A stretch of DNA of 64,000 nt from a virus: IMG/VR virus record IMGVR_UViG_3300006139_000001. One strand, 5' to 3'. Position 1 is the first letter of the stretch, and every line of letters begins with the position of its first letter. The position numbers and the translations under genes were made by a program. Below the pieces are notes generated by a model. The model ran no database searches. It worked only from the letters and a program-made list of their open reading frames with translations, and was not told the origin of the DNA. Positions 3,714 to 46,867 of this stretch are shown piece after piece.

Positions 3714-3742
3714 ATTATATCACAAAGCGAACTGTTTGTCAA
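3714..3742 (-). promoter_or_regulatory. sigma70/sigmaA early promoter
   Basis: TTGACA-17-TATAAT with TG. Confidence 0.9.
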
Positions 3743-10666: not shown

Positions 10667-10695
10667 ATTATATCACATGGTTTTCAGTTTGTCAA
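10667..10695 (-). promoter_or_regulatory. sigma70/sigmaA early promoter
   Basis: TTGACA-17-TATAAT with TG. Confidence 0.9.
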
Positions 10696-12163: not shown

Positions 12164-12192
12164 TTGACAAGCAAGATGTGATGTGGTATAAT
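12164..12192 (+). promoter_or_regulatory. sigma70/sigmaA promoter for the RNA polymerase operon
   Basis: TTGACA-17-TATAAT with TG; preceded by AATTAAATCAGAAAAA motif shared with early promoters. Confidence 0.9.
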
Positions 12193-36296: not shown

Positions 36297-36317
36297 AACT
36301 TGAAAGGAAGTGATTGT

Positions 36318-37364
36318 ATGCCACGAGAAGGTAGAACCACTGTTTATAATAAGATTACTTCCGAAGAAAAGTTGAAAGAGGTTAATCCAGAGAATTTAGA
36401 ATTAGAGAACGACTTTATTGAATACTTAGAATCTATTGATAGGTCTAAAGGAACTATTAAGCAATATCGCGCAAATCTTCATGTGTTTTGGTGTTGGAAT
36501 TTAGAATTTAATAAAAACAAGTTTTTTGTTGATTTAACAAAGAGAGAGATTGCAAAATTCCAAAGCCATGCCATGAATCAGTGGCAATGGTCGCCTAAGA
36601 GAATTAGAACTGTTAAGGCAGCAATCAGCAGTTTGTCAAACTACATAGAAAACATTTTAGATGATGAATACGATGGGTATAAACCGATTGTTAGAAAGAT
36701 TGAATCTCCTGCTGATACTGCTGTTCGTACAAAGACAGTTTTTCAGGATGATGATTTAGAGGTATTGCTTTCAAAACTTGTTGAGCGTAAGCAATATATG
36801 AAAGCCTGTATGCTTTCTCTTGCTATGAATAGCGGAAGAAGGAAGGCAGAACTGCCAAGATTTAAGGTTTCATATTTTACTGATAAAAATTTGATTTGTG
36901 ATGGCGCACTTTATAAAACGCCAGAAAAAGTCACAACAAAAGGTAGAGGTTCAAGAGGTAAGCCACTTGACCTATATACTCTATCGAAACCATTTAAACC
37001 ATATCTTGATATGTGGTTACAAGAACGTGAAAGACTTGGAATTGAATGCGATTGGTTATTTCCTAAGTACAAAAATGGAAAATGGCTAAATGAACAGGTT
37101 GATTCCTCTCTACTTGATTCTTGGGCTAGAACATTTTCAAATATGCTTGGTAAGTCATTCTATTGGCATAGCCTAAGACACTATTTTACAACTAAGCTAA
37201 AATCTTCTGGTATTCCAGACAGCGTTGTACAGGATGTTATCGGATGGGACTCTGCTGATATGGTTAAGATTTATGACGATACTCCAAGCGAAGAACAGTT
37301 TGAAAAGTATTTCGGTGCCACCGGAATTAAAGAAGTCAAACAAACATCATTAGAAGATTTATAA
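36318..37364 (+). CDS. Tyrosine recombinase
   Basis: SGRRKAE (R), HSLRH (HxxR), IGW and YD catalytic motifs. Confidence 0.9.
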   Translation: MPREGRTTVYNKITSEEKLKEVNPENLELENDFIEYLESIDRSKGTIKQYRANLHVFWCWNLEFNKNKFFVDLTKREIAKFQSHAMNQWQWSPKRIRTVKAAISSLSNYIENILDDEYDGYKPIVRKIESPADTAVRTKTVFQDDDLEVLLSKLVERKQYMKACMLSLAMNSGRRKAELPRFKVSYFTDKNLICDGALYKTPEKVTTKGRGSRGKPLDLYTLSKPFKPYLDMWLQERERLGIECDWLFPKYKNGKWLNEQVDSSLLDSWARTFSNMLGKSFYWHSLRHYFTTKLKSSGIPDSVVQDVIGWDSADMVKIYDDTPSEEQFEKYFGATGIKEVKQTSLEDL

Positions 37365-37434: not shown

Positions 37435-39360
37435 ATGTCTGATTTTAGTGCGAAGATTAGAGCCATATTAGATACTAAGGATGTTCCACGTCAACTGAAA
37501 AGTATAGAGAAAAATGTTATTACATTAAAGCATTTTAAATTAGATACATCTGGTTTACCTTCAGAAATTCAGGCTTCATTAGATAAACATAAATTTAAGA
37601 TAAGTCTTGATGGCATCAAGATGAGTAATGTTGATAGCCAAATGAAGAATGCTGGCAACAAAGCTGGTCAAGCATTTTCTCAGTCTTTAGTAAATCGTAT
37701 TAATTCACAAATATCTAATGGCAATATTGAAGCATCTGTTGCTAAAGTAACCGCACAATATGAGAAACTTGGTGCAACGGGTCACTCTAAACTTTCTGAA
37801 ATCAAAAAGGATATTCAGGAATTAACTACTTTGCAAAGCGCTATGAGTAGTGCAAAAGATAGCACAACTCTTGTTACAAATTATGAGCGGTTTAATAACA
37901 CGTTATCTAGGGTTAAAAATAACCTTACAACTGTTTCCGCTGAAAGTAAAACATTTGTAAGTACTTTGCAAATATCAACGCTTGATAACAAAATTGCAGC
38001 ATGGATGGAAAACAACTCTAAGGCATCTCGTGATTTTGGTGCAAGCATTGATAATCTTCGCAGCAGATTAGCCTCTTTAGATGCTTCTGGAACAGCAACT
38101 ACATCCCAATTAAACGCAATCGAGCAAGAGTTTAATGAGGTTAGACAGGCTGCGATTGCAACAGGACAAGTTGGTTCGTCAGTTGGTTCTCAGTTACAGG
38201 GTGCTTTCCAAAGTATTTTAAGATATGTTTCTGTATCAACGGTCATCTATCAATCAATTAGCGCATTTAAACAAATGTATCAGAATGTGTACGATATTGA
38301 TGTAGAAATGACGGAGCTAAAGAAGGTTACTAATGAAACTGCTGAATCATATAGTAGATTTTTAAAGAATGCTGGTTCTGCTTCAAAAGAAATTGGAACT
38401 ACAATTAAAGACCTTGTTAGCTCAACTGCTGACTTTGCAAGACTTGGATATTCCTTTGCTGATTCACAGGAGCTTGCCAAGGTAGCAAATATATACTCCG
38501 TTGTCGGTGATGAAATTGATAGCATTGATACTGCTACAAAAAGTCTAATTTCAACCATGACAGCATTTAATTCGCAAATGGGTTCTATGAGTCAAGGCGA
38601 ATTTGCAATGTCAATCATTGATAAATTCAATGAAATCGGTAACAACTTTGCTATTTCCTCTGGTGGTATTGGTGATGCTTTAGAGCGTTCCGCATCTTCT
38701 CTTGCCGCTGCTAATAACACCTTAGACCAGTCTATTGCTCTTATTACTGCTGCTAATACAGTTGTTCAAGACCCAGACCAGGTTGGTACTGCATTTAAAA
38801 CAATTTCAATGCGTATTCGTGGAGCAAAGACTGAACTTGAAGAAGCCGGACTTGAAACCGAAGGAATGGCTGAATCAACAGCAAAACTCCGTGAAGAAAT
38901 TATGGCTCTATCTGGTGTCGATATTATGCTTGATGAAAATACATTCAAAAGCACATATGACATTATGGATGAGCTTTCAGCAAAATGGCAAGACCTTACA
39001 GACATTCAACAGGCTTCAATTACGGAGCTTATTGCAGGTAAGCGTCAAGGCAATATTGTTTCTTCACTTATGGAGAATTTTGATATTGCACGAGAAGCAT
39101 TAAAAGATTCTGAAAACGCTGCCGGTTCGGCTATGGCTGAACATGGAAAATGGATGGAATCTCTTGAAGCAAAGGTCAAGCAGTTTACCGCAGCTTGGGA
39201 GGAACTGTCTCAGGTGTTTATGGATGACTCTTTCTTAAAGGGTCTTGTAGATACTGGAACAGGAGTTCTAAGTACCTTAACTAAAATAATTGATAAATTT
39301 GGAACATTGCCAACATTGCTTACCGTTGTAGCAGGTGCAATGTCATTTAAAAACGTGGGT
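37435..39360 (+). CDS. Tape measure protein, exon 1 (642 codons)
   Basis: TP901-type core (ELKKVT...FARLGYS...GTAFKTISMRI...IAGKRQ); ends at predicted 5' splice site GTGGGT|. Confidence 0.88.
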
Positions 39361-39769
39361 GAACTAATTAATCAGTTCCAATTTCTAATTATACTAAGAA
39401 TTGAATATGCTCACGAAACCTTAACTAATGGTAACATGAACGAGGTTATGCGTATGCTCGTAGCATAGCTAAGAGGGGTTTTAGAAAAATAGGATAAACT
39501 GATATAAGTTACGATTCTTATATCAATAGACTGGGACGATAGATGTGTAAAACCGTATATAACAACACGTCTTATCTATCAGCAGCCATTACCTAAATTG
39601 CGAGATTAGGTAGGTTCAGAGGACATAAACCTACATGGTGAAAATCATGAATGTATGTTGCAAACTGTACTCGGCAACGGTATAAGCCGAGGTAAAAATC
39701 AAACTGGTGGCTAACCAGTGTATAGAAAATAGTAGGTCTACTAACCTTTATTGCTTGAATAAAAAAGTA

Positions 39770-40234
39770 TTATTCCCCATCACATATATACTCATAATTA
39801 TTCACAATATCTGTGTATAATTTTTGAACGGATTCTTTTTGTACATCTAAGTTAATTGTAGTTAATAAATAATTTGTAGATGCGATATTTACTTGCATTT
39901 TTATAGCAAGTTCTTTACTATCATCAGATTCCATATTATCTATCAATGACTGCATTTCATTGGAAATATTTAAAGATAGTTTGTATTCATTATAATAATC
40001 CAATGAATGAGAAAAATTATCCGTAATCTCATGATTATATAGTGATATGATGTTTCTATAAAATTCACAGTAATAGTCTGTATAATTTTTTATTTCATCA
40101 TTGAATTGAAATGTTTCATTTATATCATACTTTGAGAATGTTAGTTTAATAGTTTTTTCTGACTCACTACATCCAGAAATGATAATAACGATTGCGAATA
40201 TAAAGATAAATATTGCTATTGTTTTCTTTTTCAT
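39770..40234 (-). CDS. Intron-nested antisense lipoprotein
   Basis: MKKK + hydrophobic stretch + ISGC lipobox; GGAG RBS; very AT-rich. Confidence 0.85.
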   Translation of the reverse strand: MKKKTIAIFIFIFAIVIIISGCSESEKTIKLTFSKYDINETFQFNDEIKNYTDYYCEFYRNIISLYNHEITDNFSHSLDYYNEYKLSLNISNEMQSLIDNMESDDSKELAIKMQVNIASTNYLLTTINLDVQKESVQKLYTDIVNNYEYICDGE

Positions 40235-40259
40235 ATAGAAACATCTCCATTTTTCTTTT

Positions 40260-40288
40260 ATTATATCATATTAATGATGTTTTGTCAA
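40260..40288 (-). promoter_or_regulatory. sigma70/sigmaA promoter for the nested lipoprotein
   Basis: TTGACA-17-TATAAT with extended -10 TG. Confidence 0.9.
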
Positions 40289-40342
40289 TAGTTTTTCTGT
40301 TTTACTACTTGATGATTTTCAAGCAATCATCATTTCAGTTTG

Positions 40343-43300
40343 ATATTCACGAAAATTGAAACAGAAGGAAATACATTTGTTCAAAACCTAAGAAATACAT
40401 TATTATCTGGTTTTAATGGCATTTTTGCATCTTTGAAGTCACAAAACTTTTCTTTTACATCTACATTTTCAACCATATTAGAAAATGACAGAGCGGCATT
40501 ATTGGCATACAGAGAAGCAATTAATAACAATGTTCCGGCGGCGGAAGCATTTAACCAAACAATGATGGGGGCATCTGTTGCTGCACAAGAATTCGCAAAA
40601 AATAATACTGTTAATATTTTAGGGATTCAAAACTTTACAAAAGCGCAAAAAGAAGCCGCTGTTGCTGCAATGGCACAGAACAAGTCGTTTTCATCTTGTA
40701 AAACACTTATCCAGGAATATAGTACTGGTTGTAAGAACTGCGGATTGTCACAAGAACAATTTGTTGCTGCAATAGACAGGTCTAATCCTGCGCTTGCAAG
40801 ATATTTAGCCGGTCTAAATGGTGCAAAAGGTTCATTAGGTGGATATATTCTTTCGTTAGCTAAATCAAAAATTGCTACTATTGCTTTACAAGCAGCAACA
40901 ATAGCATTAAATATGGCTTTAACGATGGGAATTTCGTTGGCTATACAAGCTGTTGTTACTGGATTAAACAATCTAATACATTCTGCAAAGAACGCTTCTG
41001 AGGCGGCAGACGATTTGAAATCTAAGTCGTTAGAAGAAGCAAAGGCAATGCAGGACGAAGTTGCACAATTAGATGAACTGATTGAAAAATATAAAGAATT
41101 AGCAAACAAGGATGTTCAAGATAGTTCTACACGAAATGAAATAAGAGATGTGCAAAGTCAGATTGTTGATTTGGTTGGTCAACAAGCGAACAATCTTGAT
41201 TTGGTCAATGGTAAACTTGATGATGAACTTGATAAGTTATTACAAATCCAAAAGCAAGAAGCTGATAAAGCTGTAGAAAGTGCCACAAATTCATATCACA
41301 CTGCACAAGATTCACAAAATAAAGCTATAGGACAAGATTCTGCTTTATGGATTGATGGCTATGCTTATGTAAGTGATAGCTGGTGGGACAATGAAGATGA
41401 TGTAATTAAAATTCTTCAAGATAATGGTTTTTCAAGTAATGTCCAAAAAGGCGGAGTATTTAACTCTCATACCTTCGTAATGGACAATATGGATGAAGAT
41501 ATGCAATTGCTTGAAGGCGCTGCTGAAAAAGCCGAACTTCTCCAAAGAATGATTGATACCATTAAAGATAATTACACTGATTATGCATCAAGTGATATTT
41601 ATAATGCGCTTATTGACCAAAGAGATGTTTATTTAGAATATGTTGATGATGTTAATGCGGCTGCAAAAGCTCTTGCCAATGCTGTAATTGTATCATCTTC
41701 TTATGATAGTGACCTTTCAAAGATTGGTGTTGACTCTGCGGAAACATTTGGTCAATATAGAGATAAACTTATTGAGATTGTAAAGAATAGTCCGGATTTG
41801 TCCGAAGCATTAGCTGATGGAAGTTTATCTAATGAAGATATCGAACAGCAAGTAACTGATTATTTATCTACATTAGATAATTTCTCTGATTATTATACTG
41901 AATGGTACAATACTGTTGTAAAAAAGCAAAAAGTATTAGAATCATTTGACCCATTAGAGGGTGCTGCCGGTGCGTTATCGCCAGAACAATCCGATGCTTA
42001 TGATAAAGTTAAAGAACAATTAGATTCATTATCAGAAGAAGAATTAGAAATAGCATATAAGCTCATAGGAACTACAGACTTTAGTACTTTTGAAGAATTA
42101 GAAGAAGCCATTCGTACATATCAACCTGAAAACACTATTAGTTTTTCTCAGTTGATAAACAATGAAAGTTTTTCTACTACTGTTGATGATTATATAAACA
42201 AAGTTACCACATTACAAGATGCGCTTGCTAAGTTTAATGATGGCACATTGGAAAATTCAGATATTGTGGAACTTATTAGAAGTTTCCCAGAATTAGCAGG
42301 TGAAACAGATAATCTTGGTGAAGCAATCCAGAATATTATTATTGATTTAACTGGCGGAGAAGATGAGCTTGGCGACTTTACTGGAATATATAAAGTATTT
42401 CAAAGTCAATTCAATAAGTTAGATACTGACGAAGATAGAGCGCAATTACAAGCGTTTATGGACACAGTTCTTAAACTTGGCAAAGTTGTTGGCAGTACTG
42501 AGTTTGCGATAGATATTGAAACAGAAACAAACGGTATGGAGAACTTGTGGACTGCGATGAAGGAGTCTGTATCTTCTACTGGTTTAACTGCCGAATCTAT
42601 CAAAAATCTGAAGGCTCGTTATCAAGACCTTGAAAATTATGATGCTGCTCGTTTGTTTGAGAAAACGGCAAATGGTATTCATCTTAACACTAAAGCTCTA
42701 CGTGAACTTGAATCTGAATACGAAAAGCAGACGAAAACTGATATTGATGAAACTTTAGATTCTTTAATTGAACAGTATAATGACTTAACCGAACAAATCA
42801 ATAATGCAAGTGATACTGCTTCTACAGCAGAATTATATGCAAAGAGAAATGATATTCTTAACCAAATCAATGATACCGCAGAACTTGCTTCGATGTATGA
42901 TGGTCTTACTTCTGCTTTCAAACGATGGGAACAAGCTCAGTCTATTGGCGAAGAAGGAGATATGTATGATAGCCTTACTGGTGGTCTTGAACATATCAAG
43001 GAACTTTACGATGAAGGCTTAATAGGGACTAATGAATTCAGAGCGGCTGTTCAGTTGATGAGCAATGAAGATTTATCAACTGCAAACATTGATGAACTTA
43101 TCGCAGCATATGAAAATGGCTACGGAGTAATGACAAGATACTTCCAAGATAGTTCAGATGGATGCATAAATTTCTTGCGTGATGTTCAAAGTTTAAATTC
43201 TGAATGGGCGCACATGAACGAAGATGGGTCTTGGGAGATTAATTTTGGAGTTGGCAGTGACCAAGAAGTTGCAGATGCTTTAGGAATCAATGTTGAGTCC

Positions 43301-46300
43301 GTACAAGCTATCATGCGGAAATTGTCTGATTATGGTTTTGATATTAACCTGGATTCTATTTTTAGCCAGTTAGACAATTTACAGAGTCGTGCCGAGCAAG
43401 CTAACCAAGCACTTATTGAAATTGGTGCTACAGATATTACATTTAATTTTGGAACAGATGATATTGATTATTTAAACGAACAGATTGAGCAATCAAAAAC
43501 CTTGATTAATAGTTTATATAACAATGATGGAGAATTAAATGTAAAATACAATGAAGATGATGTTGAAAATGCTATTGCTGTTATTGAAAGATTAATCTAT
43601 CGCAAGCAGTCTCTTGATGATGCTGCTATTTTGAAGGTTGATACTTCTACAGCAGATAGTGATGTTAGTAATATTATCTCAAAATTACAAGAATTTAAAT
43701 CATCCTATAATAATCTCGAAGTCCAAACAGCTATTGGTGCTGATACAACCGAAGCGAAAACAGCTTGTGATGGATTACTTACTGAGATTTCTGGTATGGA
43801 TGCTGAAATTCTTGCAACACTTGGCATTGATACAACCTCATTAGACACATTAAATTCAACGGTTAATGCTATTGAGCCAGAGGTTATGGTCAAAGCGGGA
43901 CTTGATGCATCTCTTATTGAGGGTTATCAAGCAGCCGAGCATAATGCTGAAGGTACAGTTATTTGGGATAATAATATTGACAAAGTTACTTCGTGGATTA
44001 ACCAATCTCATACTGCTAAAGCTGTAGTAAATTGGGAGAATAATACACGAAATGTTAAAACTTATTTCTCTGCAACAGGAGTAATTAACTGGGCTAACAA
44101 TGGTGTTAGGGGCAGGGCACAAGGAACTGCTTATTCTAGTGGTAATTGGGGTACAAAAGACAGCGGTGTTGCTTTAGGTGGAGAAATCGGTCAAGAACTC
44201 GTTGTAAGAAATGGCAAATTCTTCACTATTGGAGATGATGGAGCTGAATTCTTTAACTATAAGAAAGGCGACATTGTTTTTAATGCTGAACAAACACGAC
44301 AAATACTTCAAAATGGTAAAATTACCAATGGTAAAAAACGTGGTGTTTCTTATGCTGAAGGCACTGCATTTTCATCTGGTTCTGGTAAAATCACAGGAAG
44401 TGGGAAAGTAATAACCACTCCATCTGGAAATGGAAAGAGTAATGGAAGTTCTGGTAGTGATAGTTCTTCTCAAAAGGAAAATGAGCCAGAAGTAATTGAT
44501 TGGATTGAAGTTGCTATTGACCGTATTGAACGTGCAATTAATAGGTTAAAAACTACAGCAGAAAGCACATATAAATCTCTGAAAACCAAATTAGGTGCTA
44601 CGGCAGATGAAATTACAAAGGTTAATAATGAACTTAGTTTGCAGAGCAAAGCATATGACCGCTATATTCAACAAGCCAATTCTGTTGGTTTATCATCTGA
44701 TTTAGCTGCGAAAGTTCAAGATGGTACGATTGATATTTCAGAATATGATAAAGACACTGCTGCCTTAATTAAAGATTATCAAGAATGGTATGAGAAAGCA
44801 CTTGATTGTTCTGATGCCATTCAGCAACTACATGAAAGTCTTGCTTCTTTGTATGAGGATAATTTTGATAATATTCAAACTGATTTTGATAATCAATTAT
44901 CATTGTTGGAGCATCTAACAAATACTTATGAATCCGGCATAGATATGTTGGAGGCTCGTGGTTATCTTGAAAGTACAAAGTACTACTCTGCCCTATCAGA
45001 TGTTGAAAAACAAAACGTATCTATACTTAATCAAGAACTTGCAAACTTACAACGTGCATTTTCTGAGGCGATGAACTCTGGCGAAATTGAAGAATATTCA
45101 GAAGCATGGTATTCGATGCAAACTGAGATTAATGGCGTTAAAGAAGCTATTGCTGATGCTAATGTCCAAATGGCTGAATATGCAAAAACTATGCGTGAAA
45201 TTGAGTGGAGTTATTTTGACTACACACAAGACCGTATTTCTCAGATAACGCAAGAAGCTGATTTCTTAATTGACCTTATGAGCAATTCAGACCTTTATGA
45301 TGATAGAGGTCAATTCAATAATGCCGGAACAGCTACAATGGGGCTTCACGCTCAAAACTATAACACACATATGGCACAAGCAGACCAATATGCACAAGAG
45401 ATTCTTGAACTTGATAAGCAAATTGCTGATGACCCATATAATACAGATTTGATTGAGCGCAGAGAAGAATTACTTGGTTTACAGCAAGATTCTATTTTAG
45501 CCGCAGAAGATGAAAAACAAGCCATTGTTGATATGGTGCGTGATGGTATTGAAATTGAACTTGAAGCACTAAAAGAACTAATAGATGCTTACACAGATGC
45601 TTTAGATAGTGCTAAAGACCTATACGACTACCAAAAGAAAGTTAAAGACCAAACATCTGAAATATCTTCTTTGCAAAAACAATTGGCTGCGTATGAAAAC
45701 GATACTTCCGAGGAAACACGGGCAACCGTGCAAAAGCTGAAGGTTAAGTTAGAAAATGCGCAGGAAGATTTGCAAGAGACTGAGTATGAGAAATATATTT
45801 CAGACCAAAAGGCTTTGCTTGACGAATTATATCTTGAATATGAAGAAATTCTAAACCAAAGACTTGACAATGTTGAGGCTCTTATTAGTGACATGATTGA
45901 TGTTGTTAATGAGAAAACAGATTCTATTAATCAAACTTTAGTAGAGACTGCGGACAGTGTTGGATATACAATGACTGATAATATGCAGCGTATTTGGGAT
46001 GGTTCGACTGGTGCGCTTGATGGAACTATTTCAAAATATGGGGATAGGTTTACAGAGCAATTTACAGCTATTCAAAGTGTATTGAGTTCAATTCAAGCTA
46101 ATACAGCAGCAATGATTTCAGAGAGCGATTCCGCAGCTAAATCAACTACTGATAACACATCTTCCACAACAACACCTGACGCAAGTGTAAAGACACCCGT
46201 ATCAACTCCTACCCCACCCGCTTCCACGCCAACACCAACAAAGACAATATCTATTGGTGGCAAAATTAATGCTGGAGGTGCGCCAATTTATGATTACGCT

Positions 46301-46867
46301 GGCGACAATACTGGTGAACATCAGTATTTTTCAAAAGACCCAATTTATACTGTTTTAAAAGAGCAAAAAGGGTATCTACAGGTTCGCTGGCATAAATTAA
46401 ATAGTGGAATTACTGGTTGGTTTAAGAAGTCTGATGTTAAGGCATATAAGACAGGTGGACTTGTTGATTATACTGGTTTAGCAAAGGTTGACGGTACGCC
46501 AGGTAAACCGGAGCTTATGCTCAATGCGGAAGATACGGCAAATTTCTTAGAATTAAGAGATGCTTTAAGAACAATGTCACAGCAACAATTGAGTATAGAT
46601 AATGCAACATATAGCATAAAACCTCCACAAGTCACAAATATTGCTGACATTGGAAAACTGTTGTCTAGATTTGATGCTCGTAGTATTGATACAGGAACAA
46701 CTATTACATTTGGTGATATAAAAATAGACCACGTTGAGGACTATAATGATTTCGTAACGCAATTGCGCAATGACCCCAAATTTGAAAAAATGGTTAAAGC
46801 AATGACTATAGATAGATTTTTTGGAAAAAGTTCATTAGCAAAATATAATTACGAATGGAAGAAGTAA
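40343..46867 (+). CDS. Tape measure protein, exon 2 (spliced product 2816 aa)
   Basis: Long helical/coiled-coil sequence, ALGGEIGQELVV and GGLVDYTG...PELML motifs; no RBS at the apparent TTG start. Confidence 0.88.
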   Translation: MFTKIETEGNTFVQNLRNTLLSGFNGIFASLKSQNFSFTSTFSTILENDRAALLAYREAINNNVPAAEAFNQTMMGASVAAQEFAKNNTVNILGIQNFTKAQKEAAVAAMAQNKSFSSCKTLIQEYSTGCKNCGLSQEQFVAAIDRSNPALARYLAGLNGAKGSLGGYILSLAKSKIATIALQAATIALNMALTMGISLAIQAVVTGLNNLIHSAKNASEAADDLKSKSLEEAKAMQDEVAQLDELIEKYKELANKDVQDSSTRNEIRDVQSQIVDLVGQQANNLDLVNGKLDDELDKLLQIQKQEADKAVESATNSYHTAQDSQNKAIGQDSALWIDGYAYVSDSWWDNEDDVIKILQDNGFSSNVQKGGVFNSHTFVMDNMDEDMQLLEGAAEKAELLQRMIDTIKDNYTDYASSDIYNALIDQRDVYLEYVDDVNAAAKALANAVIVSSSYDSDLSKIGVDSAETFGQYRDKLIEIVKNSPDLSEALADGSLSNEDIEQQVTDYLSTLDNFSDYYTEWYNTVVKKQKVLESFDPLEGAAGALSPEQSDAYDKVKEQLDSLSEEELEIAYKLIGTTDFSTFEELEEAIRTYQPENTISFSQLINNESFSTTVDDYINKVTTLQDALAKFNDGTLENSDIVELIRSFPELAGETDNLGEAIQNIIIDLTGGEDELGDFTGIYKVFQSQFNKLDTDEDRAQLQAFMDTVLKLGKVVGSTEFAIDIETETNGMENLWTAMKESVSSTGLTAESIKNLKARYQDLENYDAARLFEKTANGIHLNTKALRELESEYEKQTKTDIDETLDSLIEQYNDLTEQINNASDTASTAELYAKRNDILNQINDTAELASMYDGLTSAFKRWEQAQSIGEEGDMYDSLTGGLEHIKELYDEGLIGTNEFRAAVQLMSNEDLSTANIDELIAAYENGYGVMTRYFQDSSDGCINFLRDVQSLNSEWAHMNEDGSWEINFGVGSDQEVADALGINVESVQAIMRKLSDYGFDINLDSIFSQLDNLQSRAEQANQALIEIGATDITFNFGTDDIDYLNEQIEQSKTLINSLYNNDGELNVKYNEDDVENAIAVIERLIYRKQSLDDAAILKVDTSTADSDVSNIISKLQEFKSSYNNLEVQTAIGADTTEAKTACDGLLTEISGMDAEILATLGIDTTSLDTLNSTVNAIEPEVMVKAGLDASLIEGYQAAEHNAEGTVIWDNNIDKVTSWINQSHTAKAVVNWENNTRNVKTYFSATGVINWANNGVRGRAQGTAYSSGNWGTKDSGVALGGEIGQELVVRNGKFFTIGDDGAEFFNYKKGDIVFNAEQTRQILQNGKITNGKKRGVSYAEGTAFSSGSGKITGSGKVITTPSGNGKSNGSSGSDSSSQKENEPEVIDWIEVAIDRIERAINRLKTTAESTYKSLKTKLGATADEITKVNNELSLQSKAYDRYIQQANSVGLSSDLAAKVQDGTIDISEYDKDTAALIKDYQEWYEKALDCSDAIQQLHESLASLYEDNFDNIQTDFDNQLSLLEHLTNTYESGIDMLEARGYLESTKYYSALSDVEKQNVSILNQELANLQRAFSEAMNSGEIEEYSEAWYSMQTEINGVKEAIADANVQMAEYAKTMREIEWSYFDYTQDRISQITQEADFLIDLMSNSDLYDDRGQFNNAGTATMGLHAQNYNTHMAQADQYAQEILELDKQIADDPYNTDLIERREELLGLQQDSILAAEDEKQAIVDMVRDGIEIELEALKELIDAYTDALDSAKDLYDYQKKVKDQTSEISSLQKQLAAYENDTSEETRATVQKLKVKLENAQEDLQETEYEKYISDQKALLDELYLEYEEILNQRLDNVEALISDMIDVVNEKTDSINQTLVETADSVGYTMTDNMQRIWDGSTGALDGTISKYGDRFTEQFTAIQSVLSSIQANTAAMISESDSAAKSTTDNTSSTTTPDASVKTPVSTPTPPASTPTPTKTISIGGKINAGGAPIYDYAGDNTGEHQYFSKDPIYTVLKEQKGYLQVRWHKLNSGITGWFKKSDVKAYKTGGLVDYTGLAKVDGTPGKPELMLNAEDTANFLELRDALRTMSQQQLSIDNATYSIKPPQVTNIADIGKLLSRFDARSIDTGTTITFGDIKIDHVEDYNDFVTQLRNDPKFEKMVKAMTIDRFFGKSSLAKYNYEWKK

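Follow-up and report, generated by a model that had tools for sequence, protein, structure and literature searches.

The question raised by this locus is why a gene for a small lipoprotein should lie inside the tape measure protein (TMP) gene of a phage, on the opposite strand, and what the lipoprotein does for the phage that carries it. The window (the whole stretch of 64,000 nucleotides analysed here) belongs to a phage genome, a 160,718-bp viral record that was judged complete. This genome encodes a large serine recombinase, which makes lysogeny plausible, and the phage, an SPbeta-like gut phage of roughly 160 kb, is probably temperate. An earlier note had proposed that the lipoprotein may be an exclusion factor comparable to Ltp, whose nesting within the TMP gene keeps it co-inherited with its cognate TMP allele.

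The TMP gene is found in two parts, separated by 982 nt:

37435..39360, plus strand: TMP exon 1, 642 aa with a PhageMin_Tail domain (from ORF 37435-39468 and homology to the Sundance TMP)
40343..46867, plus strand: TMP exon 2, 2174 aa (from the ORF and the in-frame join)

The TMP of Brevibacillus phage Sundance (2528 aa) is uninterrupted, and homology to it breaks off exactly after ...SFKNVG (39360). The TMP frame reopens shortly before 40343 and resumes as TMP at 40343, placing the lipoprotein gene within the TMP gene, as the earlier note had it. The last 100 residues of TMP are mildly basic. The exon 1 frame continues for 35 codons past the break (39361-39468) to a TAG stop, so that an unspliced RNA would give a truncated TMP of 677 aa; this 677-aa form is what gene callers annotate in relatives. 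One relative of the interrupted TMP lies on a 329-kb Eubacteriales MAG contig. Directly upstream of TMP in the structural block is a tyrosine recombinase-like gene (Phage_integrase domain; window 36300-37364), separate from the large serine recombinase gene elsewhere in the genome; an integrase-like gene is likewise present upstream of TMP in Sundance and in all related loci.

The sequence between the two parts is a group I intron by its helices and its relatives, and is predicted to be self-splicing. Its elements are as follows (related loci are given below by L numbers):

39361..40342, plus strand: group I intron of 982 nt in the TMP gene (P1, P10, terminal G, in-frame join, covariation)
39354..39415, plus strand: P1, formed by exon CGUGGGU (39354-39360) and guide GCUCACG (39409-39415); helices 1-3 are 100% paired
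39402..39408, plus strand: guide part of P10, UGAAUAU, whose partner AUAUUCA (40343-40349) opens exon 2
39490..39659, plus strand: catalytic core P3-P8, with Q-like AUCAGCAGCC, R-like GUUCAGAGGACAUAAACC and P7 formed by GACAUA/UAUGUU
40310..40332, plus strand: terminal intron hairpin with stem UGAUGA/UCAUCA and CAAGCA in the loop; the stem covaries among relatives

P1 has a U.G pair at the 5' splice site that is invariant in 18 sequences, and its loop contains two small hairpins. The P10 guide is the seven bases 5' of the P1 guide, and the terminal G of the intron is 40342, with the terminal hairpin just before it. Excision of the 982 nt joins ...SFKNVG to IFTK... in frame. In 13 of 18 related loci, P1 with its U.G, P10 and a terminal G together leave only one possible join, which is in frame. 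Both guides change with their exons: P10 covaries with exon 2 (CGAAUAU/AUAUUCG in L068, L070 and L072), and P1 and the exon change together in L011 (CAUCGGU/GCCGAUG). An intron-less allele, L028, reads ...GVG/IFG... across the junction.

A search with an invariant 22-nt core motif retrieved 14 more members of the intron family from viral, metagenome and MAG contigs. Covariation was tested on an alignment of 18 sequences with a hand-drawn structure of 15 helices, using slid-partner controls and 500 shuffles. Paired cells made up 94% (37-42% in the slid controls), 41 pairs were changed on both sides (3-10 in the slid controls), and none of the 500 shuffles reached the observed covariation score. 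Compensatory changes occur in P4, P5, P6 and P8, and P3 and P7 are invariant in the 18 sequences. Among L003-L005, DNA identity is 88% in the intron core, as against 73-75% in the flanking exons.

Rfam left the intron unscored in this region even at E <= 10, and a search of the whole window was also without a match; the intron call therefore rests on P1 and P10, covariation and relatives. The silence of Rfam is probably due to three features: a hairpin between P3 and P4 (39501-39524), which is supported by covariation with a full compensatory change in L075; a G.U pair in P7, invariant in the 18 sequences, where a G-C guanosine-binding pair is usual; and the pair of hairpins in the loop of P1. 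Three relatives whose introns interrupt the same codon do score with RF00028, L025 at 60.7 bits, L047 at 44.4 and L021 at 38. DNA and protein searches of an annotated phage collection gave no match to the intron, the start of exon 2 or the lipoprotein.

Two other assignments were considered and dropped. The first P4, CUGAUA/UAUCAG, gave way to CUGG/UCAG with the local hairpin at 39501-39524, which covariation favours, and a group II intron was discarded as the sequence has neither GUGYG...AY nor a domain V. A long-range pairing of AGAGG with CCUUU (39472-39476 with 39745-39749) is possible (87% paired, with one-sided changes only) and, if formed, would enclose the whole intron core. Further TMP insertions at other codons are common in this phage group. 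L055 (2800-5467) has three introns scored by Rfam; TMP gaps follow residue about 451-456 in L024, L026, L027, L029-L032 and L047, and L049-L056 have a 314-nt gap (gap sizes after residue about 451-456 are 1.3-1.9 kb or 314 nt at several loci). Inserts bearing ORFs are present in exon 1 of L003 (7492-8738) and L005 (7492-8738), the ORFs being 172/152 aa and 133 aa.

The lipoprotein gene occupies the 3' part of the intron in antisense orientation, with its own expression signals:

39770..40234, minus strand: lipoprotein gene (154-aa ORF; homologues, invariant columns, dN/dS, AlphaFold2 model)
40169..40234, minus strand: signal peptide and lipobox (MKKK, hydrophobic core, I-S-G-C22; from the translation)
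40245..40248, minus strand: Shine-Dalgarno sequence GGAG, 10 nt ahead of the ATG; relatives have GGAGG
40260..40288, minus strand: sigma-A-type promoter TTGACA-17-TATAAT with a TG extended -10 (12/12 to consensus)
39693..39719, minus strand: terminator-like hairpin and T-run of the lipoprotein transcript; on the plus strand the same hairpin is intron helix P9.1

MKKK is followed by a hydrophobic stretch of 15 residues and the lipobox I-S-G-C, whose cysteine is Cys22. The mature protein would have about 133 aa, a pI of 4.3 and a net charge of about -14. A search of 5.8 billion proteins returned eight homologues with 61-95% identity from independent metagenome assemblies, and an exhaustive profile search added a few more distant ones. 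All homologues whose flanks were read are antisense in the same TMP gap. In the nine aligned sequences the signal peptide is variable, the lipobox residues Gly21 and Cys22 are invariant, and the mature part contains long invariant blocks; pairwise dN/dS, with the window copy as reference, is 0.10-0.25. Homologues, invariant columns and dN/dS together indicate that the gene is real: it is evidently under purifying selection and not a chance ORF. An AlphaFold2 model built with the homologue alignment as input (mean pLDDT 88.6) predicts a flexible anchor followed by a single up-down four-helix bundle (helices 46-71, 82-99, 104-129 and 133-152). GC content of the gene is 23.9%, compared with 36.1% in the window and the TMP exons.

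Perfect TTGACA-N17-TATAAT sites number five in the 64-kb window, against a chance expectation of 0.04. Apart from the lipoprotein promoter, all lie in the early region (1488-1516, 3714-3742, 10667-10695 on the minus strand and 12164-12192 on the plus strand). All five have the TG extended -10, and the early four all begin TTGACAA. The lipoprotein promoter belongs to the same class as these four, but is alone in the late structural block; its -35 element is conserved in relatives. Downstream, minus-strand hairpins with T-runs lie at 39722-39735 and 39703-39719, past the lipoprotein stop codon but ahead of the catalytic core. Many lipoprotein transcripts would end there before reaching the core, and the damping of leaky TMP expression or splicing by antisense RNA, which the earlier note suggested, is not supported. 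The P9.1 stem, which covaries in relatives (helix 15), is followed on the minus strand by UUUGAUUUUUA and resembles an intrinsic terminator of moderate strength for the transcript of the cargo. The small, acidic, AT-rich lipoprotein with a consensus promoter that the earlier note described is thus confirmed in each of these respects (154 aa, lipobox, pI 4.3 and 23.9% GC; 12/12 promoter match).

The cassette sits in a position that other genes occupy in relatives. It lies between the terminal hairpin (40310-40332) and a conserved hexamer:

39752..39757, plus strand: hexamer UGCUUG, the 5' bracket of the cargo bay; its complement CAAGCA (40320-40325) is in the loop of the last hairpin

The UGCUUG bracket is conserved with different cargo, and the two hexamers change jointly to CUUGAC/GUCAAG in L068 and L070. 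When about 60 TMP loci were classified by their insert, about half were found to be uninterrupted at this codon; the remainder have the intron core and then ORFs, always antisense to TMP. The lipoprotein is present in the window, L003-L012 and L071. The same intron core (72-88% identity) is found in 14 further loci, only one of which has the window's lipoprotein. L067 carries a different, unrelated lipoprotein of 214 aa, and L076 a three-gene set. In L025 (5324-5776) and L047 (5168-5620) the antisense cargo is a 150-aa protein that resembles ToxN (Pfam E = 6e-4) and AbiQ (PADLOC E = 3.5e-4), both matches being weak, concordant and below curated cut-offs; Tandem Repeats Finder detected no antitoxin-like repeats beside the gene in L025. 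Other cargos too have good antisense promoters, which lie within the intron close to its 3' end, TTGACA-17-TATACT in L076 being an example. Taking these loci together, the cargo position is a swap site that holds other genes in relatives.

The commonest cargo is small zinc-ribbon proteins. These are encoded antisense to TMP in L019 (3157-3585), L020 (5193-5513), L021 (5205-5741), L070 (3418-3795), L074 (9103-9447) and L076 (3106-3708). They have two to six CxxC pairs, with one zinc ribbon at the N-terminus and another ribbon at the C-terminus, the latter preceded by a hydrophobic stretch, and match PHROG 2546 and 3845, both annotated "unknown". We know of no defence role for such proteins.

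In our best reading, to which we give an even chance, the lipoprotein gene is an accessory gene (a moron) lying antisense in the 3' cargo bay of the intron, whose product acts at the cell surface and is a candidate for phage exclusion. Like a moron, the gene differs from its flanks in base composition, is present in some relatives and absent from others, and has its own promoter and a terminator, the latter only moderate in strength as judged from its sequence. The cargo bay would be the P9 extension of the self-splicing group I intron. As the intron is predicted to remove itself in frame, the insert would leave TMP undamaged. Host RNA polymerase would transcribe the lipoprotein gene apart from the late TMP message, during early infection, in the lysogen or in both. 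The antisense orientation would serve as insulation, keeping the cargo out of the late transcript and stopping a constitutive cargo promoter from driving exon 2 and the downstream tail genes. The lipoprotein would be exported, lipid-modified at Cys22 and anchored to the outside of the membrane in a Gram-positive host, where its acidic four-helix bundle would most likely alter the cell surface to the benefit of the phage. The leading candidate for this surface effect would be the exclusion of other phages, a function to which we allow close to an even chance. The presence of the ToxN/AbiQ-like gene in the same slot of L025 and L047 would place the lipoprotein in defence-type company, as would the surroundings of a distant homologue, P0012 (hhalign probability 96%), whose neighbours are an HTH gene of the Cro/CI type and a gene for a large serine recombinase.

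The exclusion reading is weakened by the lack of a homology or fold match to a known exclusion protein. Searches of the lipoprotein against Pfam, PADLOC and PHROGs gave only noise at the level of the signal peptide and no defence-family match, and no relative of solved structure emerged when the PDB was searched with a sequence profile. Fold searches (Foldseek against PDB and BFVD; VIA-align, wide; ESM Atlas by fold and by features) returned generic helical bundles only, the look-alikes being PcaY/Tar-type sensor domains, PsbQ and DUF3829 with scores within the noise range for helical proteins. The structure prediction and Foldseek comparison that the earlier note had suggested thus yielded a confident four-helix bundle, but only generic look-alikes and no known exclusion protein. 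The lone chromosomal homologues, the zinc-ribbon cargo and the sub-threshold standing of the ToxN and AbiQ matches weaken the reading further.

The alternative that survives best is a possible, though on balance unlikely, one: that the lipoprotein is a lysogenic-conversion or host-physiology factor (concerned, for example, with adhesion, envelope stress or nutrient handling) that was captured from a Clostridia host and parked in the intron, with no anti-phage role. Proteins 40-42% identical to the lipoprotein are encoded by lone chromosomal genes in Ca. Heritagella-type Clostridia (L077:155-640 and L081:3036-3521). These homologues favour a host factor, suggest an ordinary cellular role and hint at the source of the gene or the host range of the phage. 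Their neighbours are ordinary metabolic genes, on contigs of roughly 50% GC (Ca. Heritagella sp. MAG). The generic bundle, weakly like periplasmic sensor or binding domains, and the absence of a defence-family match fit this alternative as well. Against it, the lipoprotein is retained over many phage contigs under purifying selection, relatives hold a ToxN/AbiQ-like gene in the same slot, and a promoter of the early class suits a function during infection. A non-defence host function is given a minor, though real, share of our expectation.

Much less probable is the original proposal that an Ltp-like exclusion lipoprotein binds the TMP of incoming phages and is nested so that the factor and its target allele are co-inherited. 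It could draw on the location of the gene inside the TMP gene and the mildly basic end of TMP, on the acidic mature domain, which Ltp also has (PMC3952083), and on the precedent of T5 Llp, an exclusion lipoprotein encoded beside its cognate structural gene, pb5 (PMC9586334). The lipoprotein also has a signal peptide with lipobox (MKKK, ISGC), as Ltp proteins do. In Ltp, the active domain is acidic and a Ser-rich spacer follows the anchor (PMC3952083). PF07553 (Lipoprotein_Ltp) gave no match on the lipoprotein (E <= 0.1) or in the whole genome (E <= 1); the Ser-rich spacer is absent, with only SESE between Cys22 and the conserved KTIKL block; and there is no internal repeat, as the two halves do not align. 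Ltp was not among the Foldseek or VIA-align matches listed for the model, although absence from the list does not exclude the fold. With no family match, spacer or repeats and a single four-helix bundle, the lipoprotein does not belong to the Ltp family (PMC3952083), and the kinship with Ltp in the original proposal is not supported.

The link to a TMP allele is contradicted by the relatives. The lipoprotein of L011 is 61% identical to that of the window (dN 0.24), the same distance as for L006 and L071, but the TMP exons of L011 and the window are only 35-37% identical (dN about 0.7), and the intron core of L011 is of a diverged sub-family common to L013 and L019. In a TMP tree made from the last 185 residues of exon 1, carriers of the lipoprotein appear in two places, with the zinc-ribbon carrier L019 nested among them. 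Forcing the carriers into one clade cost 66 log-likelihood units (AU p = 4e-8). Carriers of like cargo tend to group on this tree, as relatives would, yet the cargo has changed repeatedly, and the slot holds unrelated genes. A single origin on the TMP tree is thus rejected, and on these comparisons the lipoprotein is not tied to one TMP allele. The claim that nesting keeps an exclusion factor and its cognate TMP together must be given up: cargo varies independently of TMP, the outcome that the earlier note had named as counting against it, and the same core is found with other antisense cargo. A predicted complex of the mature lipoprotein with the last 400 TMP residues scored 0.00, which counts neither for nor against binding. 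Specific targeting of TMP by the lipoprotein is possible but unsupported, and we consider it improbable.

It is more doubtful still that there is no spliced intron, TMP being made as two polypeptides and the lipoprotein gene being an ordinary intergenic moron. The missing Rfam group I match, the lack of the usual G-C in P7 and the annotation of two TMP ORFs by gene callers in relatives would agree with this. Exon 2, however, starts without a ribosome site or a good start codon, P1 and P10 covary with the exons within a strongly covarying structure, intron-less alleles read through the junction, and relatives have introns at this codon that Rfam does score. Finally, that the lipoprotein serves the intron, as a splicing helper or a mobility factor replacing a homing endonuclease, is least credible of all: it occupies the usual place of intron ORFs and no homing endonuclease is present, but Pfam and PHROG detected no LAGLIDADG, GIY-YIG, HNH or His-Cys box nuclease domain, and a protein predicted to be secreted and lipid-anchored, without a nuclease or RNA-binding motif, is encoded antisense from its own promoter in a slot that holds unrelated proteins in relatives.

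The reading of the lipoprotein gene as a moron in an intron cargo bay would make the intron a safe harbour, in which accessory genes are expressed separately amid an essential tail gene and are tolerated there because splicing takes them out of the message. Phage group I introns are usually viewed as selfish, with homing endonucleases as their only cargo. Should the cargo genes turn out to serve exclusion or defence, introns of this type would form a novel sort of hotspot at which phages of gut Clostridia carry immunity genes, and a practical hunting ground for new surface-acting anti-phage proteins. A bolder and rather unlikely version is that the 3' end of the intron is a standard expression slot, with an RNA-pairing bracket, an antisense host-type promoter and hairpins that double as terminators, through which gut Clostridia phages swap envelope-acting and abortive-infection genes, the lipoprotein representing a novel type of phage-entry blocker with no kinship to Ltp, Llp or Cor. 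With the TMP-allele lock removed for the lipoprotein, the question narrows to whether it blocks the entry of related phages.

Several known systems share parts of this arrangement. Lambdoid morons, in work by Juhala and colleagues (2000) and Hendrix and colleagues, are reportedly independent transcription units inserted in late operons. Morons have their own promoter and terminator, a deviant base composition and a variable presence, and often encode surface or exclusion proteins. They lie between genes, whereas the lipoprotein cargo is inside a gene and is made harmless by the surrounding intron. IStrons, such as CdISt1 of Clostridioides difficile, combine a group I ribozyme with a 3' part encoding an IS200/605-type transposase that moves the element. 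They are likewise Clostridia group I ribozymes with a non-endonuclease cargo at the 3' end, but the cargo here consists of interchangeable accessory genes on the opposite strand with their own promoters.

Group I introns have already been described in the prophage TMP genes of the Bacillus cereus group (TMP-IVS1/2/3; Tourasse and Kolsto 2008, PMC2504315), and these are self-splicing, as is predicted here, and likewise in frame in TMP genes, those of Firmicute prophages. At one homing site, different TMP-IVS introns with adapted P1 and P10 are found, many without a homing endonuclease (PMC2504315). The TMP-IVS introns contain GIY-YIG or HNH endonuclease genes or none, whereas the intron described here has an antisense, separately promoted lipoprotein gene; its core is also unusual in comparison (P3-P4 hairpin, G.U in P7) and unscored by Rfam. 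Literature searches on antisense or non-endonuclease cargo in phage group I introns gave no description of this layout. TMP introns are therefore already known, and an antisense, separately promoted lipoprotein gene in an exchangeable bay was not found in the literature searched.

Two exclusion lipoproteins offer comparisons for the product. Ltp of Streptococcus thermophilus phage TP-J34 (PF07553; PMC3952083) is likewise a phage lipoprotein of a Gram-positive host with an acidic domain and the character of a prophage accessory gene. Ltp-type lipoproteins are encoded in the lysogeny module, are expressed from the prophage and block DNA injection. The lipoprotein described here differs in that its gene is in a TMP intron and not in the lysogeny module, and in having no sequence match to Ltp, no spacer and no tandem repeats. 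Llp of phage T5 (PMC9586334) is likewise a small phage lipoprotein with an early-type promoter and a gene in close contact with a tail gene, beside it for Llp and inside it here. Llp blocks FhuA, a receptor in the outer membrane of a Gram-negative host, and its gene is beside that for the receptor-binding protein, pb5 (PMC9586334). The lipoprotein of the window is unrelated to Llp in sequence, and its gene, as cargo, reassorts relative to the tail gene. By analogy of function and gene position, Llp would be the nearest functional precedent for an exclusion lipoprotein encoded beside a tail gene.
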